Origin: an uncultured Spirochaetales bacterium
GTDB lineage: Bacteria; UBP6; UBA1177; JAKLFG01
DNA length: 64,000 bases
NCBI GenBank assembly: GCA_964415795.1
Contig: CAYQBN010000001.1
Span: 212,164 to 276,163, forward strand
Direction: 5' to 3'
Position numbers and translations under genes: made by a program. The notes below the pieces were generated by a model, which was not told where the DNA came from, ran no database searches, and was given only the letters and a program-made list of their open reading frames with translations. Of the stretch, positions 488 to 54,917 are shown in pieces (position 1 is the first letter of the stretch; each line of letters opens with the position of its first letter).

Positions 488-2128
488 TTACTTCTGTATC
501 TGGAAGGTGTCGATGAAGCCCATCGAGGCGCCGGTATCGCTGTTGAGTTCCACCGCCCGGAAGCTGAGGTGTGCGCCGTCGATGGTGACCGCAACATAGT
601 GAATCGCCGCCTTGGTCACCTTGACCTTGTCGGTCGTCTTCACATCGTAGAGAGTCGCACCGGCACCGGCGGTGACGATGTAGTTGACTCCATCGGCCTC
701 CGTCGGCTGCTTCACATCTCCCTTAAGCGGCACCGAGCGCTGGTAATAGTGGTCATGACCATTGAAAACCATTGTGACGCCATACTGATCGAAGACGGGT
801 GCCCATACCGCTTTGAGATCGCTGTTGAAACTGCCGCCGTGCGTAAGGTCGGTCGTTTCGCTGTAGATGGGGCGATGATGCGTGACGAAGCGCCACACGG
901 CATCGGGGAACCACTGGCTAAACACCTGATGCATGAACTGGGTTTGCTGGTCCTTGATAGAACCGTCCTTCATGAGGGCGCCGGTGCAGGCGGTGCCATA
1001 GGTGCCCCACAGCCCTGCGCCGTTCCAGCAATCGTTGATGTTGACGAACACCGCGTTACCGTAGCGGATAGCGAACCAGTGCTCATTGCCCGGCATCGCG
1101 AACTGGGCGAAATAGTTCACCGCCGACTGTTCATGATTTCCGACCACTGAGAGGATCGGCACGCTGCGCATCCATTCTTCGGCCTGCTCGAAGACATCGA
1201 ACCACTGACTCTGGGTGGTTCCTTCACTCACCCAGTCACCACCGAAACTAATGAACACCGGATCCTCGTTCTCGATCGCTGCCCTGATGGTCCGGGCGAG
1301 CCGGTCGGGGGCGCCGCGGCTGTCGCCCATCGCGACGAAGGTGAACGGCGGAGCCGGTTTGCGCGGATCGGGGGCCGTGCGGAAGTGCGATACCGGCGAG
1401 AGGTGATCAGGATCACCGACCCGATAGTAGTAGGTCGTCCCCGGCGTAAGTCCGCAGAGTTCGGCAACATGAACCGTTTTTCGGGCACTGTCGTAGGGAA
1501 GTACCCACGCCGCCCCTTCCATCGAACCGGTGTTGCTGGGGCCGGTCTCAACGCAATTCTGCGTCATTGCCTCGTCGGTGCAAGCTTTCGCGTAGGTCAT
1601 CTTTGTCATCGAGCCGGCCGAGGAATCGAGTGTGGTCCACGTAAAGGTCATCGAGATCGCCGGTTCGCTCTGCCACGAGAGGTGAACATAGCGCGGCGTC
1701 GGTGCGTCGCCGATCGTGGGGTCAGCAGGCATCGGGATGAGCGCGGCATTGCCCGTTTCACCCTGATTGGTGCCGCAGGTTGGGTCGATGATCGGCGGTT
1801 CTCCGCCATCGTCGGGCTGTTCGTTGTCCACCGGGGTTCCGTTGTCGGTCGGCGTCGTATCTGGCTGGGGTTCGGTATCGTTCGACTGAGTGCCATCGGT
1901 CGGTTGATTGTCGATCATCCCGCCGGTATCGGGCTGTTCGGTGTCGATCACTTGGCCACTGTCGGTCGGTGGAGTCGTGTCGGTCTGTTCAGCGGTGTCG
2001 GTCACGCCGGTGTGGTCGGAAGTACCGGCGGCATCGTTCTGTACATACTGCGAACTGTCCGAGACATCGCACGCAGCGGCCACAAGAGCCACTACACCAA
2101 CGAACAGCAAAAGGTACGGCATCTTCAT
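488..2128 (-). CDS. Purple acid phosphatase-like metallophosphoesterase lipoprotein with FN3-like domain and acidic Thr/Asp/Pro stalk
   Basis: Lipobox-like AAAC; motifs GDSRG, GGDWV, GNHE, THHRP, GHDH. Start moved to ATG 2128 (AAGGAGG RBS). Confidence 0.85.
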   Translation of the reverse strand: MKMPYLLLFVGVVALVAAACDVSDSSQYVQNDAAGTSDHTGVTDTAEQTDTTPPTDSGQVIDTEQPDTGGMIDNQPTDGTQSNDTEPQPDTTPTDNGTPVDNEQPDDGGEPPIIDPTCGTNQGETGNAALIPMPADPTIGDAPTPRYVHLSWQSEPAISMTFTWTTLDSSAGSMTKMTYAKACTDEAMTQNCVETGPSNTGSMEGAAWVLPYDSARKTVHVAELCGLTPGTTYYYRVGDPDHLSPVSHFRTAPDPRKPAPPFTFVAMGDSRGAPDRLARTIRAAIENEDPVFISFGGDWVSEGTTQSQWFDVFEQAEEWMRSVPILSVVGNHEQSAVNYFAQFAMPGNEHWFAIRYGNAVFVNINDCWNGAGLWGTYGTACTGALMKDGSIKDQQTQFMHQVFSQWFPDAVWRFVTHHRPIYSETTDLTHGGSFNSDLKAVWAPVFDQYGVTMVFNGHDHYYQRSVPLKGDVKQPTEADGVNYIVTAGAGATLYDVKTTDKVKVTKAAIHYVAVTIDGAHLSFRAVELNSDTGASMGFIDTFQIQK

Positions 2129-2142
2129 GGTATCCTCCTTCG

Positions 2143-3648
2143 CTATAACGCGAACTGTGCTTGTAGTATCCAACTATCGTTCCGTATCTGCGCGTTCGGC
2201 GGATAGGGAGAACCTTCACCCGGATTGAAGTTCTCGATCTCGTCACGCAAGTGGTAATCGAAACTAATCTTGATCGTGTTCTTTCTTCCACCGGGACTGA
2301 AGTAGAGGTTGAAGCCGAAGGTAGTCGTCCGCATCTTGCGATCCATCACCTTACCGATCCCCTGAGGTACGAAGGCATCCGCATCGGCAGCAGAGTACTT
2401 GTGCCCGCCGATCATCTGGTAAGGATCGAACTCCTCGTAGCGGAGCTTGAGTTCGAGATGTTCCCGGACCCAGTAGGGGATTGGAACAAAGAGCCCCGCC
2501 TGCAGATACCATCCTTCCGACTCCCACGCCGGATCGAATACCGACTGCGCCTCATATTTCTTGCTTCCGGCGCTCTGGAGGAGCACCCAACCGCCGCCGA
2601 GCGAAAGACCTTCGAATCCGATAACGCCGTCTATCGCATAGAAGTAGGCGTCTTTGTCAACATCGTAGGCCGACTCGAGATCGATGCTCTTGCCATAGTT
2701 GAATCCGATACTGCCGGTGAAGTCGCGCCAGTTCCAGTCGGTCGGCCAGTGGTCGGGATTGAATTTCCAGTGACTCTCGTTGTACTCCCCGTAGCCGAAG
2801 GGATTTATCTCGGCGCGAAGCGAATACATCGATGCGCCGTTGCGGCCCGATCCCGATTTGAAATCATAGCCGTTCTGGTAGGCAAAGTAGTAGCGGACGA
2901 TCCCCTGCGGCCATTCCTTGAACACATCGAGTTCTGGCCACGGGAAGAGATCGCCTTGGATCATCGCGCCAAAGTCGCTCCCAGGGAACGCGCCGGTTTT
3001 CTTCGAGGGATCGAACCCCTTGATGCTCATGGTCCGCTGGCGAACCGCCATCGCCTCTTCGGCGAAGAGGTGTTTCGAGCCCGACATCATCTTCTGGTAG
3101 AGGAGCGGCGCCTTGATGAGTCCTGTCCGTATCTCGGCGTAACGGACGATCGGGAAGCTGACATACGCTTCGGAGACGATACTGTCGCCGATCTTCTGGT
3201 CCCACAGGTCGAGTTCCATCTTGAAGCCGCTCCACGAAGCGAATTTCCCCGCGAAGGCCATCCGCGCCTTGTTGAGCGAGAAGACATCGACGAGGGAGGT
3301 CGGCGGCATGTTGGCGTCGTTGTTCTGATAGGTGAATCGGCTCTGAAGGTACCCCGAGAAATAGAGGTAACTCTCGTTGGTGTCGTTCGACCAGAGAATA
3401 AGTTTATCCTCCGGTAGCGGCTTTTTCTCTTTCGGTGCGTCCTTCTTTTCTTCGCCGGCCACCGTATGGGCCGCCCGTTCTTTTTCGAGCGCATCGCGTA
3501 CCGCTTCGTTCACGATGCGGCGCACCTCCTGTTCAGTGAGGGTCCGTTCGGTGTTTCTGGCGATCTCCCCGTCGTCAACGAACTCATCCTGAGCCAAAAG
3601 AAAGGACGAGAAAAGGATCGGGAGCAGAAAAAGGGAGAGATGATTCAT
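2143..3648 (-). CDS. Outer-membrane porin, phosphate-selective OprO/OprP-like
   Basis: Signal peptide, short coiled segment, then GYLQSRF...KARMAFAG...EAYV...GLIKAP pattern of porin O/P; C-terminal aromatic strand (LQAQFAL); sits between two phosphatases. Confidence 0.7.
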   Translation of the reverse strand: MNHLSLFLLPILFSSFLLAQDEFVDDGEIARNTERTLTEQEVRRIVNEAVRDALEKERAAHTVAGEEKKDAPKEKKPLPEDKLILWSNDTNESYLYFSGYLQSRFTYQNNDANMPPTSLVDVFSLNKARMAFAGKFASWSGFKMELDLWDQKIGDSIVSEAYVSFPIVRYAEIRTGLIKAPLLYQKMMSGSKHLFAEEAMAVRQRTMSIKGFDPSKKTGAFPGSDFGAMIQGDLFPWPELDVFKEWPQGIVRYYFAYQNGYDFKSGSGRNGASMYSLRAEINPFGYGEYNESHWKFNPDHWPTDWNWRDFTGSIGFNYGKSIDLESAYDVDKDAYFYAIDGVIGFEGLSLGGGWVLLQSAGSKKYEAQSVFDPAWESEGWYLQAGLFVPIPYWVREHLELKLRYEEFDPYQMIGGHKYSAADADAFVPQGIGKVMDRKMRTTTFGFNLYFSPGGRKNTIKISFDYHLRDEIENFNPGEGSPYPPNAQIRNDSWILQAQFAL

Positions 3649-3657: not shown

Positions 3658-5823
3658 CTACTTGAAGTAAACGCCCAGTCCGGTCTTCTCCTGAAAGTCA
3701 ACGATCTTCGCGGCACGCAGGTTGGCGATTGGGTCGGAGCTGCGGGTCGGGTCGGCGAGTTGCATTCCGTGGTCGCTCGTAAGGATGACGACGGTGTTCT
3801 CGAGCATTCCCCATTTGGCGAACCAGTTGAACATCACCCTGAGGTTGTTGTCGATGTGTTCGAGCACCTTACCCATGAGATCGCCGTGCGGCCCGCGGTC
3901 GTGGCCGGTTCCATCGGTCGCCGGGAAATTCATGATGACGAACTTCGGACGCGGTTGGACCTTCTCGAAAAGATTGTAGAACTCTGTCATCGAGGCGAGT
4001 TCCGTCATCTGTTCGCCGAAGATACTGTAACTTTCGGTCACGCTTACATTGGGATAGGTGAGTCCGTCGAACGGAATGAGTGACGAAAGTGCCTTTTGAA
4101 CGAGCGGCACTTGTCCCGACCGATCGCGGAACTCGAGATCGGCGGTATCGGCGTCGCTGACCGACGGGTCGAAGAAACTGGCAGTGTAGGCGCCGTTCGG
4201 CTCATCCCACTGCCCGAAGGCGCGGTGGAGCGCCATGTGGAGCGATTCGACCTGTTCGGGAATGACCGGATTCCAATACTTCTCGGTGTTGAAGGTGTCG
4301 CCGATCGGGGTCGCCGACTCTTTGGTGTCGCGGTAGTAGTAGGAGTTGTCCACAAGCCCATGATGGCCGCTGTAGGCGCCGGAACCAAGCACATTGTGGC
4401 TCGGATAGGTGACGCTCGGCCAGTTAGTGATACTGCCATACTTCGCCCACATTCCCTCGTTCCTCATCTTAGCGATGGTCGAATACTTCTCTGGTTCGGT
4501 GTCGATCCGCCGGTGCAGTTCGGTGTGGTTGAGCCCGTCGCAGGTCACGATGATAACAGTTTGCACTAGTTCCCCCGAGAGGATCTCCTCAATGACATGG
4601 CCATCCTGCCAGCGGAGGTAGCAGTGGTGACTGAAGATGCCGCGCTCGTCAACGCAATCGGTCTTCGGCGCACCGAGCATCTTCATGACGGTCGGCGCGA
4701 CATCGACATGGCGGAGCGGCCCCTCATAGACGCCCGGCAGGATCCCTTTCCCCCACGCAACGAAAGGGGAACGACTCTGGATGAGATTGAGACTCGCGTG
4801 TTCCCCCGGCGCAACGGCGAAGTGGGCGAAATTTGCCCAGTTGACCATGAGATCGGCACTGTCGTAATGGTCGAAATAGGCGGCAATTCTCTCGTAACCG
4901 TACGGATACACTTCATCTTTTAGATCTATGAACGACAGGCGCGGGTCACCGTCGGCATACCCTTCGACCGTGGCGTTGTTGGGGTTCGATCCCAGCGCCA
5001 GTTCCTCCGCGTAGGTCGGGGCAACGAACTGGCTTTGATTCTCGATCGGATTGCCCCCTTCGAGGACCTCGACATCGTAGCGGTACCCTTTGTTGGTGTT
5101 GACCCGAGTGAACCGTATCTTGCCGCGCGCGGCGGTCACTTCATAGGTGTTCTCACCGATGCGCGTCGCAACGAAGTCGGTGCCGGGATCGGCGACAAGG
5201 AAATCGAGCGCTTTCGCGTAAAGTTCCTCCTCGCCGGGATTGATCCCCTGCTTTTCCTGCGGGAGAACCACAAATCCGCTGTGCTCCTCGACATTCATGA
5301 GGTAAAAGGGACCGGCTTCGACGGGAGCGTCTTTTCCGCTTTCGAAACGGAAGAATATCTCTCCCGCGCATCCCGCCTCCTGCTCCCAACTGTACCAGAC
5401 GACCGTCTGCGGTTCGGCGGCAAGCCCTTTGAGCGAAGAAGGGGTATCTATCGGCGTCCACTCGGCGGCGCATCCTCCTCTGTAGGAGATCATGAGGTCG
5501 CGCGGTTCACCGTCTTCGGGAGACAAGATGAACGAAACGGTGATGTCGCCCCAATCGGGACTCATTGCCACGCCACTGACGAACGGTATCTCTGGCTCGA
5601 CGAGGTCCTCATCGGTAAGAAGATCGTCCTCTCCGTTCACACCTTCGTCCGTTATCCCCTGATCGTCCGCCATCTCTTCCTTTTCTCCCGCTCCCTCATC
5701 GACCGACATCGTCTCGTCCGTTGCCGCGACGGTATCGTTCTCGGCGACGACCCACGGGTCTCCTTCTCTATCGCACGCCCCAAACAACAGCATGCTGACG
5801 ACGACGAAAAGTATCGTTCTCAT
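3658..5823 (-). CDS. Alkaline phosphatase/nucleotide pyrophosphatase-phosphodiesterase superfamily lipoprotein, apparently circularly permuted
   Basis: Lipobox FGAC; motifs CDG, PSVTYPSH, GHHGLVDN, DGTGH, SDHG, and GEH/PFVAWG/VDVAPT in non-canonical order. Confidence 0.8.
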   Translation of the reverse strand: MRTILFVVVSMLLFGACDREGDPWVVAENDTVAATDETMSVDEGAGEKEEMADDQGITDEGVNGEDDLLTDEDLVEPEIPFVSGVAMSPDWGDITVSFILSPEDGEPRDLMISYRGGCAAEWTPIDTPSSLKGLAAEPQTVVWYSWEQEAGCAGEIFFRFESGKDAPVEAGPFYLMNVEEHSGFVVLPQEKQGINPGEEELYAKALDFLVADPGTDFVATRIGENTYEVTAARGKIRFTRVNTNKGYRYDVEVLEGGNPIENQSQFVAPTYAEELALGSNPNNATVEGYADGDPRLSFIDLKDEVYPYGYERIAAYFDHYDSADLMVNWANFAHFAVAPGEHASLNLIQSRSPFVAWGKGILPGVYEGPLRHVDVAPTVMKMLGAPKTDCVDERGIFSHHCYLRWQDGHVIEEILSGELVQTVIIVTCDGLNHTELHRRIDTEPEKYSTIAKMRNEGMWAKYGSITNWPSVTYPSHNVLGSGAYSGHHGLVDNSYYYRDTKESATPIGDTFNTEKYWNPVIPEQVESLHMALHRAFGQWDEPNGAYTASFFDPSVSDADTADLEFRDRSGQVPLVQKALSSLIPFDGLTYPNVSVTESYSIFGEQMTELASMTEFYNLFEKVQPRPKFVIMNFPATDGTGHDRGPHGDLMGKVLEHIDNNLRVMFNWFAKWGMLENTVVILTSDHGMQLADPTRSSDPIANLRAAKIVDFQEKTGLGVYFK

Positions 5824-5887
5824 GGCAATCCTCCTCGAAAAACGGGAACATGGTGCCTTCCCATCATGTGGCGATGATGAGGCGTTC

Positions 5888-5914
5888 GTTAGAATGCAAT
5901 GTAAGGACGGTAAA
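5888..5914 (-). promoter_or_regulatory. Pho-box-like 11-bp repeats (TTTAC/TACAT/CTAAC)
   Basis: Minus strand TTTACCGTCCT TACATTGCATT CTAAC upstream of the phosphatase-porin operon; the middle unit is degenerate. Confidence 0.5.
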
Positions 5915-5915
5915 A

Positions 5916-6818
5916 TTATGCCGCCCGAATCACCTGCGATGGCGATGAAACCTCGAATTTCGCACCGACTTGACCGTTCAACTTGTCCATGTCGAGCAGG
6001 GTGAGGAAATCGGCACAGCGGAAGTGACGGTCGATTATCGGTTCGCCGAGCACCGTGGCTCCTGCTTTAAGATAAGCCTTGAGAAGTGGCGGTATAAGAG
6101 CCTTGGCGTGTTCCTCGTCAATGCCACCGATCGAGGAGACGAAGCGATAGTAATCATCGAACTGACGAATACGGAATTTCCGGTTCGGCTGGGCGTGCAC
6201 GACACCATTTCCCGCATGATAGACTGAAAAATAACCGTGGAGCGCAACGAGATCATCCATGTCCATCGTCTTGATGCTCGAACAACCGAAGAGCCATTGC
6301 GCACCAGTATGTTTGGCATATTCGGCGATCCCCTTCCACAACAGAAGAATGGCGGCACCGGTGCGATGATCGGCATGGACGCAGGCGCGTCCCAACTCGA
6401 CCTTGACTCCCGGCAGTTGGAGTATCTCTCTGATGTTGAATTCGGTTGCCGTGTAGAAGTTGCGCGTGAACAGCGAACAGTTGAACCGGTACGTACCAAC
6501 GCAGGCACCGCTTTCCCGGTCTATGAGCATGAGGTGATCGCACTTGAGATCGAATCGGTCGAAGTCGAGTCCGAGCGGGTGACGGATGTGGAGCAGTTCC
6601 TCGTAGAACACCGCATGTCGGAGCAAGAGAACCTGCCGCAGATCATCGCCGTTCTCGGCCATCTTAACCGTGTAACGCTTATTTTCCAGCAAGAAGCGGA
6701 CATGCGGCCGGTAGCGGTCGAGTTGCGCATCGATGCGAGACACCACGAATTTGCGGGCGATCTGCCCGACGAGCGGCATCGAGAACGGGGCTTTCTTCAT
6801 CGTGAGCGTCGTGCTCAT
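5916..6818 (-). CDS. GNAT-fold N-acyltransferase, OlsB-like (ornithine/amino-lipid synthesis)
   Basis: LRHAVFYEEL, DRFDLKCDHL, VGTYR, ELGRACV, IPPLLKAYL..GA...GEP..D..F...D pattern typical of the OlsB/Acetyltransf_5 family. Confidence 0.75.
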   Translation of the reverse strand: MSTTLTMKKAPFSMPLVGQIARKFVVSRIDAQLDRYRPHVRFLLENKRYTVKMAENGDDLRQVLLLRHAVFYEELLHIRHPLGLDFDRFDLKCDHLMLIDRESGACVGTYRFNCSLFTRNFYTATEFNIREILQLPGVKVELGRACVHADHRTGAAILLLWKGIAEYAKHTGAQWLFGCSSIKTMDMDDLVALHGYFSVYHAGNGVVHAQPNRKFRIRQFDDYYRFVSSIGGIDEEHAKALIPPLLKAYLKAGATVLGEPIIDRHFRCADFLTLLDMDKLNGQVGAKFEVSSPSQVIRAA

Positions 6819-6879
6819 CAGACACCTCCATTTACCTTTCTATAACGGAGGAAACATCGTCCCTTCGTATTGTCGCATG

Positions 6880-6906
6880 ATGAAAGGCGTGTTGAAAAAC
6901 GGTGAA
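6880..6906 (-). promoter_or_regulatory. Pho-box-like 11-bp repeats (TTCAC/TCAAC/TTCAT)
   Basis: Minus strand TTCACCGTTTT TCAACACGCCT TTCAT upstream of the OlsB-like gene. Confidence 0.55.
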
Positions 6907-6916
6907 AAGTGAAGGA

Positions 6917-7618
6917 TCATCGTATCTTCACCGTCTCGTACCAGAGCGTTTCGGTGTCGAGAATGACCCCCTGAAAGCGCCCCATCGAGCAGGAGCCGCA
7001 GTTGAGGTAACGCTTCTTTTTATTGAGGTAATAGGTCTTGTGGTATTCGATCTTGTGGGTGTGTCCCAGTATCACCACATCGTACTTCCTCAAAAGGCCG
7101 AGCGCATAGTTAAGGTATCGGAACGAATTATACTTTCGCGGTATTCGATGGATCTCGTCATCGAACGCGATCGCCGCACGATAGAGTTTCTTGAACCACT
7201 TGAAGCGGCACATTGCCTTGATAAGCAGATACATCCACCGTCCGAACAGGCGCCCGATACGGGTGCCGTTCAAGAAATCGGCGTTGTGTCCATGTTCGAT
7301 GTAGATCGTTTGACCGCCCGCGTTACGAATGAGGAGATGGTCTTTGCCGAAATTGTTGAAGATATCGTGATTGCCCCGGATATAGATCGGCTTTTTCGAG
7401 TAGAGATAGGCGAGCAGTTCACGGTTGTGTTCGACTATCTCCGTAAAATCCCATTTGTAGAGTTCATAGATGTCGCCGTTGAGAACGATCATCTCCACCT
7501 TGTACTGCGCAATGACCGATTCCATCGTGGCAATGAACTCGGTAGGGTGCCAGCCGAAGATGTCCGATCCATCCTTCGGAACACCGAGGTGAAGGTCGGA
7601 GATGACCATGATTTGCAT
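6917..7618 (-). CDS. Calcineurin-like metallophosphoesterase, LpxH/PlcP-like
   Basis: ISDLHLG, NGDIYE, RGNHD, EHGH, LGHTH motifs. Likely start ATG 7618 (MQIMVISD), 1 nt after the upstream stop. Confidence 0.8.
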   Translation of the reverse strand: MQIMVISDLHLGVPKDGSDIFGWHPTEFIATMESVIAQYKVEMIVLNGDIYELYKWDFTEIVEHNRELLAYLYSKKPIYIRGNHDIFNNFGKDHLLIRNAGGQTIYIEHGHNADFLNGTRIGRLFGRWMYLLIKAMCRFKWFKKLYRAAIAFDDEIHRIPRKYNSFRYLNYALGLLRKYDVVILGHTHKIEYHKTYYLNKKKRYLNCGSCSMGRFQGVILDTETLWYETVKIR

Positions 7619-7619
7619 G

Positions 7620-8981
7620 CTACACTCCGAGGGGGCGTTCTCCGGGCGAAAACTTTCCCGTCGCGACGACCTCTTCGATGAAGTAGGTGCCCTTCTTGCG
7701 TCCCTTGAGAAAACCGTTCCACGCCGCTTCGGCAAGCCGTCCCTTCCGACGGAGATCAAAGAGCCACTCGTTACAGTACCGTGCTGGCCCGGGCATCTTG
7801 AAACCGGCCCCCATCTCGCGGACCCAGCGGCGGTTCTGTTTCTCGTGGTACCCGACCGGCTGAGAAAAGATGATGGGAATGCCGAGCGCGCAGTAGAACG
7901 ACAGTTCACTCGGTTTGGTCCAGAGAACATCGACTTCTCGAAGGACTCGGTTGAATGCGGCGAAGTACTCGTCGTAGCCGGCGCCCCAAACGATCCTGAC
8001 CGCATTGTCGAGTCGGTATACCCCCGTTTCGACGAGATAAGACTCGAACTGCCGCTTTACCGACCTACTGACGCCTGCTGAAAGAAGCAGCCGTACCTTG
8101 CCTCCTTCAATGAACGGAATGAGCGCAGTCAAGATGTCGCGCGTCATTGCCGCCTGCGTACCCGAACCGCCGACCGCAAAGAGAAGCGTCAAATGATCGC
8201 GCCGTCGGAGCGGTATCTCGCGATCTCCGAGAAAATGGCGCACCTCTCGCTCATGGAGAGGGAAAAAACGGTTGTCGGGATCGAGCCGGATCAGGCGCTC
8301 AAAGAGGTCGTCACGGAGGATCTCGAGATGCTCCTTGCTCCCCAAGCACTCTTTCGGAAGCGGAAATCCGGTGAGATGGATTCGTTCCTCGGGGACGCCA
8401 TAATTTTTAAGACGGCGTACCACATTGGCACACGGTGCACAGTAGTGAAGGGCGCTCCGCGCGGGGTCGCGCGGCACCCAGACACGATTGACGTCACTGT
8501 CGGTGACGAGCACGAAGGTCGGTTGCTCGCGGCTCCCAAGTGCATCCTGTGCGAGCGCCGTAGCAAAGAAGGTGTGGATCGAGGGGAGCGGTCGCTCCCT
8601 GATACGACGAATGAGGCTTGCACCAAGCCCCCGGAATCGGATGAGAAAATCAACATACCGGAGACCGATCGTTGGTCGCGATAGATCACGCGAGGGGTAG
8701 CGCGGTGGAATACGGAACAACCAATCGAGGAGAGCAAAAAGCCAAGGTCCGATGATCGGAACATCGAGTGCCCGTGAGAAAAGGTAGTAGAGCCGACGTG
8801 TCCGCCGCAACGCCCGGGCCTCGACGGTATCGGTTATCGTTTCGTCGCCATAGACGATCGTTTTTCCTTCCTCAGCGAGGTCACGGAGGGGGTAAGCGGC
8901 ACGAAGATGGCCGAGACCCATCTCGACCGAGATGACCCACGCCTTGGGAGAGGTATCAGTTTTCGTACTCGAGTCCGCCAT
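7620..8981 (-). CDS. GT-B fold glycosyltransferase-like protein resembling GT28 (MGDG synthase/UgtP-like)
   Basis: N-terminal MGLGHLRAA, VTD, TGFP, AVGGSG, LWTKPSEL and ALGIPII...HEKQN elements paralleling GT28 signatures. Start set at MADSS (8981). Confidence 0.55.
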   Translation of the reverse strand: MADSSTKTDTSPKAWVISVEMGLGHLRAAYPLRDLAEEGKTIVYGDETITDTVEARALRRTRRLYYLFSRALDVPIIGPWLFALLDWLFRIPPRYPSRDLSRPTIGLRYVDFLIRFRGLGASLIRRIRERPLPSIHTFFATALAQDALGSREQPTFVLVTDSDVNRVWVPRDPARSALHYCAPCANVVRRLKNYGVPEERIHLTGFPLPKECLGSKEHLEILRDDLFERLIRLDPDNRFFPLHEREVRHFLGDREIPLRRRDHLTLLFAVGGSGTQAAMTRDILTALIPFIEGGKVRLLLSAGVSRSVKRQFESYLVETGVYRLDNAVRIVWGAGYDEYFAAFNRVLREVDVLWTKPSELSFYCALGIPIIFSQPVGYHEKQNRRWVREMGAGFKMPGPARYCNEWLFDLRRKGRLAEAAWNGFLKGRKKGTYFIEEVVATGKFSPGERPLGV

Positions 8982-10128
8982 CGGGTACCAGAGCGATGAG
9001 AGAATCCTTTTCAACGGTAATGGTACGTCCGCGCCACCGGACACGGCGGGTCACAAAGGGAGAAAGGTAGATGATGAACGAAAGGATATCCTTGACCACC
9101 ACGACCATCGGAAAAACGAGCAGTGTCCGCCACGACGGCCGTTCGTTGGGCTGAGAGAGCGCGTTGATATATTCGAGCACCATCTTGACGACCGTCGCGG
9201 TCACCAAAAGGAGCATCCCGCTCTTGCCGAGAAAAGGCACAGACACCAGCGACCACACGATCGGGTGCATGAGCACTTCCGAGAGATACAGTTTCGGTTT
9301 TATCTGAAACCGCATCACCGCCCAGCGGCTCATCCGATCGTAGAAGGAACGGAGCGAACTGTCGCGGTTCACGTTCTCGGCGGGAGTGAAGTTGGTCGAG
9401 ACCCGGAGATTCTTCTTCCGGAAGAGAAGCCCCATCATGTAATCCTCGGCAAGATAAGGCTCAAAGGGACGAAACCCGCCGAAGTGTTTCTCGAGCGCTT
9501 CCCGCTCGATGAGCAGTGACTTGCCGATGACGATCGGTATGCGGAACAGGCGCCACGCGGCGATGAGATTGCCGGTGATGTAGTAGTTGAGATAGGCGTT
9601 CTCGACGAGTGCGCCGAAGGTGCGCGCGCCAGTCGCCGTGATAGGACAGAACACTAGTTTAGTGCCATTGAGAAGGTACTCCTCCACAAGACGCGAAAGC
9701 GTATCGGGAGACACCCTTACATTGGCATCAGCTATCCAGTAGAGGTCTCCCGTCGCGTGCCGTTCCATCTTGGCGAGGTTATCTACCTTCGGATTGAGCG
9801 GCTTATCGGTGCCGGTAACGAGGATGAGCGTGCGAATGTGCGGATACCGCACCGCGACTTCGCGGATGACCGGCACCGCCGGATCGTTCTCGGTCTCGAC
9901 GGCGAAGAGGACCTCGAAGTTCGGGTAATCGCTTCTGTAGAACGACTCGATGTTCTCGGCGAACGGGCCATCGGCGTTCTTCACCGGTTTGAGGATCGAC
10001 ACTCGCGGCAGACGGTCATCTTTCAACCGTTCCTTCTTTTCTAACGAGCGCACGCTACGCGGTCCCACCGCATAGAAAGAGAGAAGAACGAACGGCGCGA
10101 ACACTACGATCATCCAAAAAAGGAGCAT
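8956..10128 (-). CDS. Glycosyltransferase family 21 (ceramide glucosyltransferase/HpnI-like)
   Basis: N-terminal TM, VSILKPV, NPKVDNL, ADANV, GKSLLI, LAEDY, RMSRW, C-terminal TMs. Start ATG 10128 with GAGGAGG RBS. Confidence 0.8.
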   Translation of the reverse strand: MLLFWMIVVFAPFVLLSFYAVGPRSVRSLEKKERLKDDRLPRVSILKPVKNADGPFAENIESFYRSDYPNFEVLFAVETENDPAVPVIREVAVRYPHIRTLILVTGTDKPLNPKVDNLAKMERHATGDLYWIADANVRVSPDTLSRLVEEYLLNGTKLVFCPITATGARTFGALVENAYLNYYITGNLIAAWRLFRIPIVIGKSLLIEREALEKHFGGFRPFEPYLAEDYMMGLLFRKKNLRVSTNFTPAENVNRDSSLRSFYDRMSRWAVMRFQIKPKLYLSEVLMHPIVWSLVSVPFLGKSGMLLLVTATVVKMVLEYINALSQPNERPSWRTLLVFPMVVVVKDILSFIIYLSPFVTRRVRWRGRTITVEKDSLIALVPDGGLEYEN

Positions 10129-10169
10129 TGAAACCTCCTCATACCATTTCACATCACGCCGGATTCGCT

Positions 10170-10250: not shown

Positions 10251-10277
10251 CACACCGTTCGCTAACCGTTTCTTAAT
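10251..10277 (+). promoter_or_regulatory. Pho-box-like 11-bp repeats (CACAC/CTAAC/TTAAT)
   Basis: CACACCGTTCG CTAACCGTTTC TTAAT upstream of the porin-phoB operon; nearly identical to the pstC-proximal unit CTAACCGTTCG. Confidence 0.65.
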
Positions 10278-10350
10278 GTTTGGCCGCTCAAAATCCTCAC
10301 TGTTTTATGACCGTTTTCTGATAACCGATTGACTAAAAACGGAGGAAAAG

Positions 10351-11778: not shown

Positions 11779-11826
11779 ACTTCCTCTATACTTTTCGTAT
11801 GGTAAGCAAACCTTTGGGAGGTGCCC

Positions 11827-12522
11827 ATGGCTCGCGAACGAATCCTTGTGGTGGACGATGAGCAGGACATTCTCGAACTCATCCGCTACAACCTGTCGCG
11901 GGAAGGCTATCAGATCGAAACGGTGACCACCGGTGAAGAGGCGATAAAGGTCGCCCGCGATCGTCATCCCGACCTCATCATCCTCGATCTCATGCTCCCC
12001 GGCATAGACGGCCTCGATGTCTGCCGCCTGCTCAAAGGCGAGACGCGCACGAGCGACATCCCCATCATCATGCTCACCGCGAAAGGGGAAGAGAGCGATG
12101 TCGTCGCCGGTCTGGAGCTCGGCGCCGAGGACTATATGACCAAGCCATTCAGCCCTAAGGTGCTCATCGCACGGGTCCGCAACATCCTGCGGCGCAAGAC
12201 ACGGAGCGCCGAGGAGAAGGAGGTCAAGATCATCGTCATCGAGAACATGAAGATAGACCCCTCGAAGCATAAGGTCACCATCGGGAAAGAAGACATAGAC
12301 CTCACCGCGACCGAATTTTCCCTGCTTCTCTTCCTCGCCAAGCGGCCCGGCTGGGTCTTCACGCGCAGTCAAATAATCACCGGCGTCAAGGGCGATGACT
12401 ATCCGGTGACCGACCGCTCGGTCGATGTCCAGATACTCAATCTGCGCAAGAAACTGGGCAAGATGGGCGACTACATCGAGACGGTGCGCGGCGTCGGCTA
12501 CCGGTTCAAAGAGTTGACCTGA
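11827..12522 (+). CDS. phoB: OmpR/PhoB-family response regulator
   Basis: VVDDE, LDLMLPGIDG, MLTAKGEE, GAEDYMTKPF, winged helix RSVDVQI...IETVRGVGY; pst/phoU/phoR context. Confidence 0.85.
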   Translation: MARERILVVDDEQDILELIRYNLSREGYQIETVTTGEEAIKVARDRHPDLIILDLMLPGIDGLDVCRLLKGETRTSDIPIIMLTAKGEESDVVAGLELGAEDYMTKPFSPKVLIARVRNILRRKTRSAEEKEVKIIVIENMKIDPSKHKVTIGKEDIDLTATEFSLLLFLAKRPGWVFTRSQIITGVKGDDYPVTDRSVDVQILNLRKKLGKMGDYIETVRGVGYRFKELT

Positions 12523-12694: not shown

Positions 12695-12920
12695 GCCTTT
12701 TTACCCCGCGTCGGACCGGTGCTTATCTCCGCGTGAAGGTTTCGGGTGTGATGCAGGCGAGCATCTCGTCGAGCGTCGCTTCGCCGGATGGCTCTACGAT
12801 GAGACGGTTCTTCTCGATCTTGACCTTGACCATACTTCCTTCATTCAGCCGGAGCGCTTCAGTAAAGACCTTCGGCAGTCTCAACGCGAAACTGTTGCCC
12901 CAACGCATGATTCGTAGCAT
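12688..12920 (-). pseudogene. mazE: MazE/AbrB antitoxin with a 1-nt deletion
   Basis: RWGNSFALRLPK...LDEMLACITPE. Adding one A to the run at 12740-12742 restores NLHAEISTGPTRGKKAW* whose stop overlaps the mazF ATG. Confidence 0.8.
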
Positions 12921-12993
12921 GACGCACATCCCCCTGCTCTACAATGTATATACGTCAAGCAGGTGCGGGGAAATATTTTTCAATAACAAGCGG

Positions 12994-14400
12994 TTAGTGC
13001 GTCGGCGCGGGTTCACCCGCCTGCAGGTCGGCGAGCCGATCGGCGTATTCCTTCTTGAGCGCGGCGACCTTCTCGATCGCCTTCTCGTATTCCTCGGCGA
13101 AGGCGACCCATTTCTGTTCGTAGCCTTTCTTTATCTCAGCGATCTTTCGGTCATAAACCGTCTCGTACTCCTTCTTCACGGAGGCGAGTCGGGCGAGCGC
13201 TGCGTCGTATTCCTCTTTCCACTGGGCGATGCGGTTCTCGATGAGCGTCTTCCGTTCACCGATGGCGGCGGCAAGCCGTTCCCTGAACTTGGCGAACTCA
13301 TCCTGATAGAGGGTCACCATGGCCATCTCGTACTGATCCTTGAGCTCAGCGACGAGTTCCCGTACTGGGACGATCTTCTCTATGCGCCACGCATTGCTTC
13401 CGCAGAAGGCGAACCCATCCTTCATCTCCCCTTTCCGTGCATTATTGAGCGCCTCGGAAATGCAGTACTGGGCCTCCCGCGCATTGCAAGACTCCAGACA
13501 GCGCCACGGGCAGCGGAAGTCTTTTCGCTCGCCACGTGCGACCTCGACAAGGAAATCGTTACGAATGGCACGACCCGGCATCCCAACGGGACTCTTGATA
13601 ATGATGATGTCTTCCGCGCGACAGGAGACATAGGCCTCCTTGAACCGACGGTCCGCGTCGCATTCGTCGGTAGCGACGAAGCGGGTCGCCATCTGGACCC
13701 CCGCCGCGCCGAGGCGGAGGATGCGCTGAATGTCGTCGCCGGTATAGATGCCGCCGCCCGCTATGACCGGAACGGGGCGTTCGAACCGTTCCGCGAACTC
13801 CTTCACCGCAGCGATCACCTCGGGAAGTATCCTCTCCAGCGCGTATGCCGGATCGTCTATCTGTTCTATCTTGAAGCCAAGATGACCGCCTGCCTTAGGA
13901 CCTTCGACCACAACGGCATCGGGTATATCGCGGTAGTGCTTCTCCCATGAACGGAAGATGAGGTTCGCAGCACGTCCCGACGAGACGATGGGAACCACCT
14001 TGACCTTCGCGGCGCGCAACGCGGCGACCGGAATATCCTTTATCGGTAGACCGGCGCCGAGGAAGACGACATCGGGTCGCTCCTCGACGATGACGCGAAG
14101 CATATCCTGAAAGTCGTTGACCGCCACCATCAAGTTGACACCGATGATACCTTGGGAACGCTTTCGCGCCGCTCGTATCTCGCGTCGTAGAGCGCGAATG
14201 TTCGCCTCGCGTCCGTTCTCACGATAGTCGGGCTCCATGAGGCCAATGGCATTCGCGGCGATGACGCCGATGCCACCTTCATTGGCGACGGCGGAGGCGA
14301 GGCCGGAGAGCGATATGCCGACCCCCATGCCGCCCTGAACGATGGGAAGCGTCGCGGTCGAATCACCGATGGTCAGCGTGGGCATCGAGAAAAAGCGCAT
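12994..14400 (-). CDS. Nitronate monooxygenase-family (NMO/FabK-like) flavoprotein with a C-terminal coiled-coil tail
   Basis: PIVQGGMGVG, GAGLP, VEGPKAGGHLG, PVIAGGGI, GVQMATRF, SPVGMPGRAI. Start ATG 14400 with AGGAG RBS. Confidence 0.85.
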   Translation of the reverse strand: MRFFSMPTLTIGDSTATLPIVQGGMGVGISLSGLASAVANEGGIGVIAANAIGLMEPDYRENGREANIRALRREIRAARKRSQGIIGVNLMVAVNDFQDMLRVIVEERPDVVFLGAGLPIKDIPVAALRAAKVKVVPIVSSGRAANLIFRSWEKHYRDIPDAVVVEGPKAGGHLGFKIEQIDDPAYALERILPEVIAAVKEFAERFERPVPVIAGGGIYTGDDIQRILRLGAAGVQMATRFVATDECDADRRFKEAYVSCRAEDIIIIKSPVGMPGRAIRNDFLVEVARGERKDFRCPWRCLESCNAREAQYCISEALNNARKGEMKDGFAFCGSNAWRIEKIVPVRELVAELKDQYEMAMVTLYQDEFAKFRERLAAAIGERKTLIENRIAQWKEEYDAALARLASVKKEYETVYDRKIAEIKKGYEQKWVAFAEEYEKAIEKVAALKKEYADRLADLQAGEPAPTH

Positions 14401-16786: not shown

Positions 16787-17815
16787 CTACTTCCACACCG
16801 GCTGGCCGGCTGCCTTAAGTTCCTTCTTCCACGCCGCCTGCACGAGGTCTATGAGCGTCTTCGGCAGTGGGACATAGTCGAGTGCCTTGGCCGCCTTGTC
16901 GCCATTCTTCAGGCACCAATCGAAGAACTTGAGCATCGTCTGCGCCTTCGCGACATCGGGCATTTCCTTATAGATAAGGATGTAAGAAGCGCCGACGACC
17001 GGCCAGCTCTGGTCGCCCGGCTGGTCGGTGAGCACCATGTAGAAGCCCTTTGCGTTCGCCCAGTCGGCGTTCGCCGCGGCGCTCTGGAAGGTGTCGATGG
17101 AGGGGGCGACGAACTTGCCCGCCTTGTTCTTGAGTTTGGTGTAGGTCATCTTGTTCTTGAGGGCATAAGCATACTCGACATAGCCGATCGAGCCGCCGGT
17201 CTGCTTGACGAACGCGGCAACGCCCTCGTTGCCCTTGCCGCCGACACCGGTCGGCCAGTTGACCGCCTTCGCGTTACCGACCTTGCTTGCCCAGTCGGCG
17301 CTCACCTTGGTCAGGTAGTTGGTGAAGATCCAGGTAGTGCCGGAACCGTCGGAGCGGTGAACCACGACGATCTTCTGGTCGGGGAGCGCGACGCCCGGGT
17401 TTTCGGCCGCGATCTTCGGGTCGTTCCACTTCTGGATGTTCCCGAGGAAAATTTGTGCGAGCGTTTCGCCCGACAGTTGCAGTTTCCCCGCCTCGATACC
17501 CTTGAGGTTCACCACCGGCACGACGCCGCCGATGACCATCGGGAACTGAAAAAGTCCCGCCGCGTTGAGCTCCTCCTCCTTGAGCGGTTCATCGGATGCG
17601 CCGAAATCGACCGTTTTCGCCTTGATCTGCGCGATGCCACCGCCCGAGCCGATCGACTGGTAGTTGAGCTGCATGCCGGTGACCTTGTTGTAGTCGTAAG
17701 CCCACTGCGAGTAGATGGGGAACGGGAAACTCGCCCCTGCGCCGTTGATTGTCTCGCCCGCCGAAAGCATGGCGAACAAAAAGGTTGCGCCGAGTACCGT
17801 AAGTAACCTCTTCAT
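16787..17815 (-). CDS. pstS: Phosphate ABC transporter substrate-binding protein
   Basis: GAGASFPFP, NYQSIGSGGG, DFGASD, RSDGSGTT, GKGNEGVA, IGYVEYAY. Confidence 0.95.
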   Translation of the reverse strand: MKRLLTVLGATFLFAMLSAGETINGAGASFPFPIYSQWAYDYNKVTGMQLNYQSIGSGGGIAQIKAKTVDFGASDEPLKEEELNAAGLFQFPMVIGGVVPVVNLKGIEAGKLQLSGETLAQIFLGNIQKWNDPKIAAENPGVALPDQKIVVVHRSDGSGTTWIFTNYLTKVSADWASKVGNAKAVNWPTGVGGKGNEGVAAFVKQTGGSIGYVEYAYALKNKMTYTKLKNKAGKFVAPSIDTFQSAAANADWANAKGFYMVLTDQPGDQSWPVVGASYILIYKEMPDVAKAQTMLKFFDWCLKNGDKAAKALDYVPLPKTLIDLVQAAWKKELKAAGQPVWK

Positions 17816-17892
17816 AGTGTCCTCTCCTCGTTGTGTTATCAAAAACCCTCCGGCGCACCGGCGCCGGTCGGTGAGAGAAGTATGGCCGCTTT

Positions 17893-17919
17893 GTTAAGAA
17901 ACGGTGAAGGTAGTATGAG
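17893..17919 (-). promoter_or_regulatory. Pho-box-like repeats facing pstS (CTCAT/TTCAC/TTAAC)
   Basis: Minus strand CTCATACTACC TTCACCGTTTC TTAAC, 11-bp period. Confidence 0.7.
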
Positions 17920-17952
17920 AATACGGCAAACAAAGAACGAATTGTCGGCCAA

Positions 17953-17979
17953 TTAACGGTTTGCTAACCGTTCGTTAAC
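17953..17979 (+). promoter_or_regulatory. Pho-box-like repeats facing pstC (TTAAC/CTAAC/TTAAC)
   Basis: TTAACGGTTTG CTAACCGTTCG TTAAC, 11-bp period. Confidence 0.75.
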
Positions 17980-18028
17980 AATCGGCGCCTACTCTGCGAG
18001 TAGTGTTGAAAGAGGAGCATACGGAACC

Positions 18029-18985
18029 GTGCAGGTCGTCAAGCGATACTTCACAGAGCATTTCGAGTCGCTGTTCAAGTGGTTCACGATCTGCTGTGCC
18101 GCGCTCGTGCTTCTCATCATGGCGGCGATGTTCCTGCAACTGGTCTGGAACGCGCGGCTCGCCATCGGGCACTTCGGGATCTCGTTCCTCTGGACCGACC
18201 AGTGGGATCCGGCGACCCATCAGTACGGCGCCCTTTCGAGCATCTACGGAACGCTCGTCTCGACCATCATCGCCATGGTCATCGCGGTCCCGATGAGCGT
18301 CGTCATCGCCCTCTTTCTCGTCGAGCTCGCTCACCCCGTTGTCGCGAAGATCGTCGGCACCGCGATAGAACTGCTCGCCGCGATCCCGAGCATCATCTAC
18401 GGTATGTGGGGACTCTTCGTCTTCGCCCCGATCATGGCAGAGAAGGTGCAGCCATTTCTGCAAGAAACGCTCGGCCTCGAGAAGGTTCCCGGCATCGGAA
18501 AACTCTTTACCGGCGCTCCGATGGGGATCGGCATGCTTACCGCGGGACTCATCCTCGCGCTCATGATACTGCCGTTCATCAGCGCGGTTATGCGCGATGT
18601 CTTCGCGATGGTTCCCTCGGTCGTCAAGGAGTCGGCCTACGGGATGGGATCGACGACATGGGAGGTGACTCGCAAGGTGACGCTCCGTTACGGCATCCAA
18701 GGCATCATCGGCGCCTGCTTCCTCGGGCTCGGCCGCGCGATCGGCGAGACGATGGCGGTCACCTTCGTCATCGGCAACGCCCACAACATTTCGCTTTCGC
18801 TCTATGATCCCGGCAGTTCGATCGCTTCGACGCTCGCCAACGAGTTCGCCGAGGCATCCGAGCCGATCTACCTCCATTCGCTCATCTACCTCGGGCTCGT
18901 GCTCCTCGTGATGACCTTCGTCATTCAGGTGCTCGCCCAGTGGTGGGTGCGGCGGCTCAAGAAGAGCATGGGGGCGGGGCTGTGA
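18029..18985 (+). CDS. pstC: Phosphate ABC transporter permease
   Basis: [34 protein letters not shown]. Confidence 0.95.
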
Positions 18986-19830
18986 AGAAGGCCGACAACA
19001 TCCGCCGGCGCGAGGCACTCAACCGGACGGTAAGCGTTCTCTCGGGACTCGCCGCGCTCGTCGGCATCTTCTTCCTCGGCTGGATACTCTGGACCGTCAC
19101 GCGACAGGGTCTCGCGGCGTTCGACCTCGAGTTCTTCACGCAACTGCCAGCGCCGCCCGGCATCGAAGGAGGCGGTCTCGCCAACGCGATCGTCGGCACG
19201 GTGCTCATCACGCTCCTCGCGACGCTGATGGGCGTTCCGTTCGGTCTTTTCACCGGTGTCTATCTCTCCGAGTTCGGGAAACATTCCCGTTTCGGCGATC
19301 TCGTCCGGTTCACAATGAACATCACGATGGGAGTCCCCTCGATCATCGTAGGTCTCTTCGTCTATACGATCCTCGTCCTGCCGGTGGGACATTTTTCGGC
19401 CTATGCCGGCGCGGTCGCGCTCGCCATCATCATGCTGCCGGTCGTCGCACGGACGACCGAGGACATGCTCGGGCTCGTTCCGAATGCGCTCCGCGAATCG
19501 GCGCTCGCCATCGGCATGCCGCGCTGGCGCATGATCGTCGCGATACTCTTCCGGGCGGCGCGGTCGGGCCTTCTCACCGGCATCCTGCTCGCCGTGGCGC
19601 GGGTCTCGGGCGAGACGGCGCCGCTCCTCTTCACCGCGATGAGCAGTCCTTACTGGATGAAGGGTCTCGCCGAGCCGACGGCCAATCTTACCGTCACGAT
19701 ATTCAACTACGCCATGAGCCCGTTCGACGATTGGAAGCAACTTGCGTGGGGCGCCTCTCTGCTTATCATGGCGGCGGTGCTCGGCGTGAACATCGCGGCG
19801 CGTGTTCTGTTAAAGGAGAAGAAACGATGA
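18982..19830 (+). CDS. pstA: Phosphate ABC transporter permease
   Basis: [35 protein letters not shown] start overlaps the pstC stop (GTGA). Confidence 0.95.
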
Positions 19831-20621
19831 GCGACACTTCGACTCTTCCTCTCTATGGCACACCGGCCGATCCGACGCCCACGATAGCGGTGCGCGGCCT
19901 CAATTTCTTCTACGGCACCCAGCAGGCGCTCTTCGACAACGATCTCGATATCGCACCGAACCGCGTGACCGCGGTCATCGGCCCCTCGGGGTGCGGCAAG
20001 TCCACCCACCTTCGGGTCTACAACCGCATCTTTGAACTCTACCGCGACCAACGGGCCACCGGCACGGTCTTTCTCAACGGTGAGAACATCTTCGCCATGA
20101 ACCTCCTCGACCTGCGCCGCCGCGTCGGGATGATCTTCCAGAAGCCAACGCCGTTCCCAATGTCGGTCTTCGAGAATGTCGCGTATGGCATCCGGCTCCA
20201 CTACGAGGTTTCCAAAAGCGAACTCGAGGGACGCGTCGAGGCGGCGCTCAAGGGCGCGGCGCTCTGGGAGGAGGTGCGCGACCTGCTCCACAAGCCGGGA
20301 ACGGCGCTCTCGGGCGGCCAGCAGCAGCGGCTCTGCATCGCGCGGGCGATCGCGGTCGAGCCGGAGGTGCTCCTCATGGATGAACCGACGAGCGCGATAG
20401 ACCCCATCGCGACGGCGAAGATCGAGGAACTGGTCGAAAGCCTCAAGAGCCGATTCACCATCGTCATCGTGACCCACAACATGCAACAGGCGGCTCGCAT
20501 CAGCGATTTTACCGCCTTCTTCTTCAAGGGCTACATCGTCGAGTTCGGGGAGACGAGGCAGATATTCACCAACCCGAAAAACAAGAAGACCGAGGAATAT
20601 ATCACCGGACGGTTCGGTTAG
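19827..20621 (+). CDS. pstB: Phosphate ABC transporter ATPase
   Basis: [49 protein letters not shown]. Confidence 0.95.
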
Positions 20622-20633
20622 AGGGAGGTTACC

Positions 20634-25283: not shown

Positions 25284-25359
25284 AATACAATAGGTTTGTG
25301 AATACAACAGAAAAATAATTGGCAGATATTATCAATTATTCTTGACAACGGAGGTGGAA

Positions 25360-25695
25360 GTGGATATCCTCTATAGGAATAAGGGGCTAGAAAAGGCATG
25401 TACGGAACAAAAAGAGGCTGTGAAACGGTATGGACCGAACAACCAGAAAAAATTGTTTCAGAGGCTCAGCGAAATTGATGCGGCTGACAACCTCGAGATT
25501 CTCTGCAAAATCCCCGCTGCTCGCTGTCATCCGCTTACGGGCAATCTCAAGGGCCTGTGGGCCGTTGATCTGGTGCATCCGTTTCGTTTGTTGTTCCGCT
25601 TAGTAAAATCTGATGGTACCGATATCGAGGAGGAGGAGATCATTCCGGCATTGGTAGTTGCCGTGATGATTTGGGATATAAAGGACTACCATTAG
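25360..25695 (+). CDS. higB: HigB/RelE-like toxin (plasmid-maintenance killer type)
   Basis: RCHPLTGNLKGLWAVDLVHPFRLLF, C-terminal IKDYH. GTG 25360 with GGAGG RBS. Confidence 0.8.
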   Translation: MDILYRNKGLEKACTEQKEAVKRYGPNNQKKLFQRLSEIDAADNLEILCKIPAARCHPLTGNLKGLWAVDLVHPFRLLFRLVKSDGTDIEEEEIIPALVVAVMIWDIKDYH

Positions 25696-25704
25696 GGGAG
25701 AAAC

Positions 25705-26793: not shown

Positions 26794-26826
26794 CTTTTGA
26801 TTCTGACGAACCGATTATTTTAGCAA

Positions 26827-54913: not shown

Positions 54914-54917
54914 TCAA

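Follow-up and report, generated by a model that had tools for sequence, protein, structure and literature searches.

The alkaline-phosphatase superfamily, to which the nucleotide pyrophosphatases/phosphodiesterases (NPPs) and the phosphatase PafA belong, is a main model in studies of how enzymes evolve, of catalytic promiscuity and of deep mutational enzymology. Along a colinear NPP chain come an Asp, the Thr nucleophile, the DxxxH and DH motifs and then, in the last third of the domain, a His. Circular permutation, where the termini move while fold and active site are kept, occurs naturally in other folds, for example in circularly permuted GTPases (cpGTPases) of the YlqF/RbgA type, in permuted DNA methyltransferases and in swaposins. 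The classic route is duplication, fusion and trimming. Here, we describe a gene at positions 3658..5823 (minus strand) of a 64,000-nucleotide stretch of DNA from an uncultured Spirochaetales bacterium (contig CAYQBN010000001.1, positions 212,164 to 276,163), called the window below. The gene probably specifies an exported lipoprotein with a catalytic domain that is a natural circular permutant of the NPP branch and an active phosphoesterase.

The open reading frame (ORF) is single and uninterrupted, encodes 721 amino acids from an ATG start, and has a ribosome-binding site (GAGGAGG) 6 nucleotides 5' of that ATG. Reading from the N-terminus, the protein presents GEH (residues 340-342; 4798-4806), PFVAWG (residues 353-358), HVDVAPT (residues 372-378; 4690-4710), CDG (residues 428-430, with DG at 4534-4539 and D429 as the Asp), the nucleophile motif PSVTYPSH (residues 469-476, the T472 codon lying at 4408-4410), DGTGH (residues 637-641, holding D637 and H641) and DHG (residues 684-686, holding D684 and H685; 3766-3774). 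The chain then stops 35 residues past DHG. A preliminary description of this DNA had given these motif positions and an end about 35 residues after DHG; direct reading of the ORF found the coordinates exact and the end where it had been placed. The chain is organized as follows.

5773..5823, minus strand: residues 1-17, signal peptide and lipobox (LFGA-C17), from direct sequence reading, with Cys17 as the predicted lipidation site
5590..5772, minus strand: residues 18-78, acidic low-complexity tether, predicted to be disordered (predicted local distance difference test, pLDDT, below 50 for residues 15-70)
5290..5589, minus strand: residues ~79-178, all-beta accessory domain (AlphaFold2 strands 82-176, pLDDT >95)
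4939..5268, minus strand: residues ~186-295, family-specific alpha+beta region with conserved R240 (AlphaFold2 helix 199-211, strands 215-256)
4663..4938, minus strand: residues 296-387, permuted segment equivalent to the canonical C-terminal third of NPP/PafA (profile and alignment matches)
4558..4662, minus strand: residues 388-422, new linker from the old C-terminus to the old N-terminus, a beta-hairpin (AlphaFold2 strands 388-391 and 396-401)
3661..4557, minus strand: residues 423-721, N-terminal two thirds of the NPP core (Pfam PF01663, hhalign, Foldseek)

The permuted segment contains a strand (DLMVNW), the loop G-E-H342 with the seventh metal ligand, a second strand (SRSPFVAWG) and the helix HVD374VAPT378. 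The linker bears a near-invariant W-Q406-D407-G408 motif. The core holds D429, T472, N493, D637/H641 and D684/H685, and ends in the strand GVY719FK. The all-beta domain is missing in the 570-amino-acid and ~490-amino-acid members of the family (P0034-P0038; P0120/P0149/P0185). The alpha+beta region is kept across the whole family, minimal forms included, and probably supplies the rest of the peripheral subdomain interrupted by the permutation breakpoint. Pfam returned nothing significant on residues 18-280, which cover the beta domain and the alpha+beta region.

The argument for permutation begins with what domain profiles see. Pfam PF01663 (Phosphodiest) matches residues 423-690 with 99.4 bits against a cut-off of 23 (E 4.2e-28), and this match spans only positions 1-224 of the 342 in the profile; nothing at the C-terminus of the protein corresponds to the remaining third. 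Thus, the whole domain (D, T, DxxxH, DH, then H) is not matched colinearly, and the last third, which bears the His, is found at residues 316-387 instead. The fragment 280-422 alone matches the final 50 positions of the Pfam Sulfatase profile (E 0.0017), and when it is placed behind residue 721, the match grows to positions 210-300. The preliminary description had expected two Phosphodiest matches in reversed order. One exists, at positions 1-224 of that profile; the N-terminal piece is seen weakly through the end of the related Sulfatase profile and, with far more strength, through the match of a family profile to PafA described below.

More direct are comparisons with P0048, a canonical 425-amino-acid bacterial ENPP used as the colinear reference. 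A de-permuted construct aligned to it by BLASTP passes straight across the artificial junction (E 6e-7), with GEH paired to GEHG and HVDVAPT to NIHVYPF. The native family profile matches P0048 by hmmsearch in three pieces in reversed order, whereas the de-permuted profile runs over it without a break, 175-405 on 172-409. In hhalign, with 81 aligned canonical NPPs as the target, residues 419-720 fall on canonical 42-294 (E 6e-25), and residues 316-387 fall on canonical 324-409 (E 1.6e-4). The de-permuted family profile is also colinear, in three stretches, with the solved structure of ENPP4 (4lqy; E 1.4e-21).

A profile of residues 296-422, searched against 177,635 PDB sequences, finds residues 448-520 of the 549 in PafA (5tj3; E 7.7e-9), followed by weaker matches to sulfatases, LtaS, PhoK and ENPP4 in the corresponding C-terminal region. 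Here, H342 aligns with the His at chain position 475 of 5tj3, and D684/H685 align with chain positions 341/342. Since the corresponding PafA metal ligands are D352/H353 in the published numbering, the offset is +11, which makes residue 486 of PafA the counterpart of H342. The remaining assignments come from alignment to P0048, ENPP4/5 and PafA, which together place D429, T472, D637, H641, D684, H685 and H342; N493, in GHHGLVDN, aligns with the same motif of P0048 (the position of N111 in Xanthomonas (Xac) NPP and N100 in PafA). We take PafA residue 486 to be the seventh Zn ligand of that enzyme.

The protein therefore passes the residue-level tests of the superfamily and lacks the colinearity common to all its described members, and is best classed, from its sequence, as a member of a circularly permuted clade of the NPP branch. 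The breakpoint would lie approximately at canonical residue 294/295, in a small peripheral alpha/beta subdomain after DHG.

The arrangement is not confined to this protein. An exhaustive search with residues 180-422 found 202 representatives at 50% identity (E <=1e-3), 107 of them at E <=1e-10, and a word-indexed search found 46 clusters at 90% identity with the same architecture and lengths of 570-1114 amino acids. The preliminary description had mentioned similarly ordered proteins in other bacteria, and this was thereby borne out. In full-length matches the segment is N-terminal, with ~300 residues after it. The permuted motif order is kept in 132 full-length relatives, down to ~30% identity, and multidomain forms of 1000-1500 amino acids have it as well; forms of ~490 amino acids from metagenome-assembled genomes (MAGs) of Acidimicrobiales also belong to the family. 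The permuted layout is heritable and conserved, not a one-off fusion. Because the N-terminal segment is homologous to the C-terminus of the superfamily, and because the order persists in those 132 relatives, the layout is not a chance arrangement of short motifs.

The metal ligands are kept in 127 (H342), 121 (D429), 124 (D637), 122 (His or Glu at 641), 126 (D684) and 128 (H685) of these 132 relatives; the nucleophile, as Thr or Ser at 472, in 126; and Asn at 493 in 114. H342, D374 and T378, all in the front segment, are each kept in 127-130. Further residues are peculiar to the family. The linker residues Q406, D407 and G408 are kept in 129, 127 and 131 relatives, and R240, R498 and R534, which canonical NPPs lack, in 121, 126 and 124; E526 and Y719 are also conserved. 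The lipobox "AC" remains in the family consensus.

Not all relatives are alike. In four (P0070, P0084, P0110 and P0115), most metal ligands and the nucleophile have been replaced together while QDG is kept, which makes them apparent pseudoenzymes; because QDG persists even in such degenerate members, the linker motif is probably structural. In some very long relatives (P0046, of 1105 amino acids, and P0101, P0111, P0113, P0141 and P0191, of 1200-1500), the permuted domain, or its front part only, is fused to other modules, among them beta-propeller or WD40/PQQ-like repeats. Some of the very long relatives carry a second xDxAPT motif ahead of the nucleophile. All members that could be traced are from metagenomes or MAGs and carry the labels Myxococcales, Deltaproteobacteria, Acidimicrobiales, Actinomycetes or just "bacterium"; a scan of genome collections gave seven loci, all in MAGs. 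Their automatic names ("alkaline phosphatase family protein," "phosphonoacetate hydrolase," "hypothetical") are generic or wrong.

Structure prediction supports this reading. An AlphaFold2 model, built with the 46-sequence family alignment, is a single confident chain with a mean pLDDT of 89.7 and a predicted template-modelling score (pTM) of 0.86; disorder is limited to residues 15-70, and front segment and core both have pLDDT 95-98. Residues 325-382 run strand, GEH loop, short helix, strand, strand, helix, an order that agrees with what we take to be that of the canonical C-terminal third. Foldseek against the PDB aligns the model with NPP1/3/5/7 and Xac NPP over ~270-285 columns with a TM-score of ~0.45 (normalised to the 380-amino-acid NPPs). 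Foldseek is, of course, a sequential aligner, and a match to two thirds of the fold is just what a permutant should give. No full-length structural relative, and no solved member of the permuted family, appeared in that search. The model suggests that both pieces may share one compact domain with a single bimetal site. Thus the two central proposals of the preliminary description, that the C-terminal third of the fold has been moved in front and that all metal ligands are retained, find support in four independent sequence tests, in the family-wide conservation of all seven ligand positions, and in a confident one-piece model.

How might such an enzyme be built and work? In canonical numbering, the chain would read ~324-409, new linker, ~42-294. 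The elements with which an ordinary NPP fold is closed, namely a strand, the GxH loop and the xDxAPT helix, would be made first, and the WQDG hairpin would join this front piece to the strand that carries the first metal ligand. Together the two pieces would then make up a single alpha/beta domain around one bimetal (Zn) site, where one metal would be held by D429, T472, D684 and H685, and the other by D637, H641 and, reaching in from the front segment, H342. T472 would attack phosphorus to give a phospho-threonine intermediate, which would then be hydrolysed, with N493 contacting a non-bridging oxygen.

As to origin, tandem NPP genes may have been duplicated and fused, with both ends then trimmed. 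At one locus (L012, 3297-4742 and 18957-21806), in the genome with the distant homologue P0017, three further genes for canonical Phosphodiest proteins lie close to the permuted gene, and two of these are arranged in tandem. Such tandem paralogues are what a permutation by duplication and fusion would start from.

The protein is probably delivered beyond the cytoplasm. The lipobox L-F-G-A-C occupies residues 13-17, with Cys17 followed by Asp at +2, and MRTILFVVVSMLLFGA-C17 agrees with the PROSITE-type lipobox rule, as expected of a bacterial lipoprotein. By the rule established for E. coli, Asp at +2 is a signal for inner-membrane retention (Lol avoidance). The preliminary description had called the protein surface-tethered; the lipoprotein part of this stands, whereas Asp at +2 would, under the E. 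coli rule, speak for the inner membrane. The same residue follows the lipobox Cys both here (FGAC-D) and in a neighbouring purple-acid-phosphatase-like protein (AAAC-D), and judged from sequence both lipoproteins may face the periplasm from the inner membrane, rather than lie on the cell surface.

What the enzyme might do is suggested by its surroundings, of which the following features matter.

488..2173, minus strand: purple-acid-phosphatase-like metallophosphoesterase lipoprotein (Pfam Pur_ac_phosph_N and Metallophos)
2143..3648, minus strand: divergent OprO/OprP-like (Porin_O_P) porin of 501 amino acids with a Sec signal peptide, 9 bp past the stop of the permuted gene
5916-6818, minus strand: OlsB ornithine-lipid N-acyltransferase
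6917-7639, minus strand: metallophosphoesterase of 240 amino acids, putatively PlcP-like
7620-9044, minus strand: DUF6938 protein
8956-10152, minus strand: GT21 glycosyltransferase
10252..10315: candidate Pho boxes, 11-bp direct repeats TAACnGTTnnn, in the GT21/Porin_5 divergent promoter
11821-12522, plus strand: OmpR/PhoB-type regulator
16787-23056: pstS (minus strand), then pstC-pstA-pstB-phoU and a PAS/HAMP PhoR-like histidine kinase (plus strand)
17954-17983: candidate Pho boxes TAACnGTTnnn in the pstS/pstC promoter, perfect at 17954-17972

The porin-like protein has no match in Pfam or NCBIfam, and was placed by hhalign against the Porin_O_P proteins of two other loci (L014/L015; probability 98%, E 2.4e-13). 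It is 46% identical to a 500-amino-acid protein encoded near a distant homologue of the permuted enzyme (L012). The purple-acid-phosphatase gene likely starts with MKMPY at 2128, and a counterpart is found in loci L009-L013. The set of OlsB, metallophosphoesterase, DUF6938 and GT21 is typical of the remodelling of membrane lipids under phosphate starvation. The string at 5916-10152 thus looks like a lipid-remodelling cluster, where phospholipids are swapped for ornithine lipids and glycolipids. The same OlsB-to-GT21 string stands beside a homologue 79% identical to the permuted protein (L009-L011), where the neighbourhood is the same except for one NYN-domain gene inserted before the porin-like gene. 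Near a relative at ~47% identity, the 500-amino-acid porin-like protein and a purple acid phosphatase are found again; in two other relatives, the first or second gene downstream encodes a Porin_O_P protein.

With a PhoB-type regulator, pstSCAB-phoU and a PhoR-like kinase, the window holds a complete set for Pho signalling and transport. The Porin_5 gene and the PhoB/OmpR-type regulator diverge from the minus-strand string. The E. coli-type Pho box (CTGTCAT-N4-CTGTCAT), sought in five intergenic regions, gave weak matches only, and was replaced by the TAACnGTTnnn repeat. This occurs 9 times, against 2.1 expected in shuffles, and is clustered in two divergent promoters, which makes it a candidate for the PhoB-binding Pho box of the host, unlike the E. 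coli consensus. The promoter at 10252-10315 heads the minus-strand string that ends with the permuted gene, the porin and the phosphatase, 4.4 kb upstream of the permuted gene. A scan for sigma-70 promoters and terminators around the permuted gene gave nothing useful, and Rfam found no RNA family in the window.

Because of the porin, the purple acid phosphatase, the lipid-remodelling genes and the pst/pho genes, a neighbourhood that is partly conserved, a phosphate-scavenging module is favoured, and the most likely role of the permuted protein is that of a phosphate-scavenging phospho(di)esterase. Induced by phosphate starvation, it would act as a phosphodiesterase/pyrophosphatase that frees phosphate from organic phosphorus. 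Labour would be divided, with the permuted enzyme cleaving diesters or anhydrides and the purple acid phosphatase finishing the monoesters, while the OprO/P-like porin, co-transcribed, would pass phosphate or anionic substrate.

Elsewhere in the window, two stretches of low GC content (~23757-34000 and ~51000-58000, at 0.40-0.52 against ~0.58-0.62 elsewhere) are probably horizontally acquired islands. The first opens with HsdM, the methylase of a type I restriction-modification system (23757-25283), and contains an ORF of 1065 amino acids (29490-32687). Two further ORFs lack Pfam matches: 12733-13950 (plus strand, 405 amino acids) and 17975-19018 (minus strand, 347 amino acids), the latter overlapping pstC on the opposite strand and probably not a gene.

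Several observations weigh against a permuted, scavenging NPP and must be set beside those that favour it. Taken alone, the front segment reaches a probability of only ~50-56% in hhalign, where the canonical alignment is rather narrow; for this segment the strong match is that to PafA. Further, hhalign of residues 186-315 against canonical 295-323 gives no significant match (probability 0.1%), so the exact breakpoint is only approximate. That H342 reaches the metal of D637/H641 is suggested by homology, conservation and the high pTM. In favour of this, H342 is missing from five sequences, and in four of them several core ligands are gone as well (Fisher p 9e-4, uncorrected for phylogeny); such joint loss is, of course, the pattern expected if H342 belongs to the same metal site. 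As to regulation, the 92 bp immediately in front of the permuted gene (5824-5915) contain no repeat resembling a Pho box. Of the "Pho operon" of the preliminary description there remain the Pho-type gene content and the candidate boxes 4.4 kb away, without a box directly in front. Three relatives, P0010 among them, have unrelated neighbours, and reading the N-termini of the ~490-amino-acid Acidimicrobiales forms revealed no evident signal peptide. From the neighbourhood of P0010 and from these short forms it follows that the family is not purely one of secreted scavenging enzymes.

What else might the protein be? The same topology might serve a phosphomonoesterase, an alkaline phosphatase like PafA or PhoK in which the family-specific arginines grip a dianionic phosphate, and this is a real though clearly less likely possibility. 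The permuted segment does resemble PafA far more than any NPP (E 7.7e-9 as against 0.1 for ENPP4), and PafA is the best NCBIfam match, though far below its cut-off. R240, R498 and R534 are conserved family-wide and absent from canonical NPPs; in PafA, it is K162 and R164 that confer monoesterase activity, and no counterpart of the auxiliary domain with these residues was identified in the permuted protein. The spacer between N493 and D637 is 143 residues long, compared with 97 (N109 to D207) in P0048. The core tells a different story, however. Residues 423-690 are closest to NPP5/7/3/4 and Xac NPP (E 1e-8 to 1e-7), with PafA far behind (E 0.024), and the signature P-S-x-T-[FY]-P-x-H...GHHGLVDN hardly differs from the one in a canonical bacterial ENPP. 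Moreover, the purple acid phosphatase two genes downstream is already a dedicated monoesterase, which fits a division of labour.

The remaining explanations deny that there is a working permutant at all. The front segment might be a decaying relic of an upstream gene of the superfamily, fused to a C-terminally truncated NPP, with neither a common domain nor a common metal site, and the single, partial Phosphodiest match in Pfam would fit this. It is very improbable. In a relic, H342, D374 and T378 would not have persisted in 127-130 of 132 relatives at identities as low as ~30%, H342 would not be lost together with the core ligands, and the segment would not model at pLDDT >95 within a chain of pTM 0.86; further, without the front segment the core would lack its seventh ligand and its closing strand and helix, since the end comes 35 residues past DHG. 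It is more improbable still that the protein is a catalytically dead binding protein with an AP-like fold. Pseudoenzymes exist in the family, of course, as the ligand losses of P0070, P0084, P0110 and P0115 suggest, but the window protein has all seven ligand positions, a Thr nucleophile and N493. Hardly any weight goes to the idea that misassembly or a frameshift has artificially fused parts of two genes: the ORF is uninterrupted and preceded by a ribosome-binding site, and the identical architecture recurs in independent JGI, ENA, NCBI and Logan assemblies, on contigs of up to 2.95 Mb, which refutes it.

If a permuted and active NPP-branch enzyme is accepted, a further and more speculative question is whether the permutation was neutral. 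The WQDG linker, the alpha+beta region and R240/R498/R534 might have remodelled the pocket, giving a distinct branch with its own substrate class, although we hold this to be rather unlikely. Candidate substrates would then be pyrophosphate- or polyphosphate-type compounds, in view of the adjacent OprO/P-like porin, or the phosphodiesters of lipid head groups, in view of the Pho-type remodelling genes. Were it true, a natural test would be at hand of how connectivity affects a heavily studied fold.

In any case, the family is a ready set of sequences in which chain connectivity, folding order and auxiliary domains can be examined against a two-metal active site. It is also a warning to annotators, since domain models see a truncated Phosphodiest, and pipelines write "phosphonoacetate hydrolase" or "hypothetical"; recognizing the permutation corrects the annotation of a widespread, uncultured family of phosphorus-cycle enzymes. 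To the microbial scavenging of organic phosphorus it adds a new candidate, whose gene in uncultured diderm bacteria is linked to those of a phosphate-type porin and a purple acid phosphatase.

It remains to set the protein among known systems. No NCBIfam model reaches its cut-off on it, and no curated model or solved structure was found for its family. The literature searched gave no description of a permuted member of the alkaline-phosphatase superfamily, and neither there nor in the libraries was a natural circular permutant of this fold found. With the NPPs (PF01663; Xanthomonas NPP 2GSN, ENPP1-7), which provide the best sequence and Foldseek matches for residues 423-700, it shares PSxT[FY]PxH, the Asn of GHHGLVDN, DxxxH, DHG, the GxH ligand and the xDxAPT helix. 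Unlike them, it places the canonical C-terminal third ahead of the other two, joins the pieces by a conserved WQDG linker, and carries an additional alpha+beta region, conserved R240/R498/R534, ~45 extra residues between the Asn and DxxxH, and an N-terminal lipobox, acidic tether and beta domain.

PafA and PhoK (5TJ3, 3Q3Q) provide the best match of the permuted segment and share the seventh-ligand His and the DIAPT helix. PafA is, like the role proposed here, a scavenging enzyme of phosphate starvation; PafA is colinear, however, and the permuted protein is not. Assignment to the PafA equivalog (NF042991) was rejected at 29.4 bits against a cut-off of 650. Several relatives bear the automatic JGI name phosphonoacetate hydrolase (PhnA), an enzyme of the same superfamily that matches in the N-terminal DG...T part; its model TIGR02335 gives 15.7 bits on residues 422-502 against a cut-off of 407.55, which leaves the name unsupported. 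Finally, cpGTPases, permuted DNA methyltransferases and swaposins record the same kind of event in different folds. With natural permutants already known from those folds, what is found here is a permuted form of a known type of enzyme, rather than a new kind of system.

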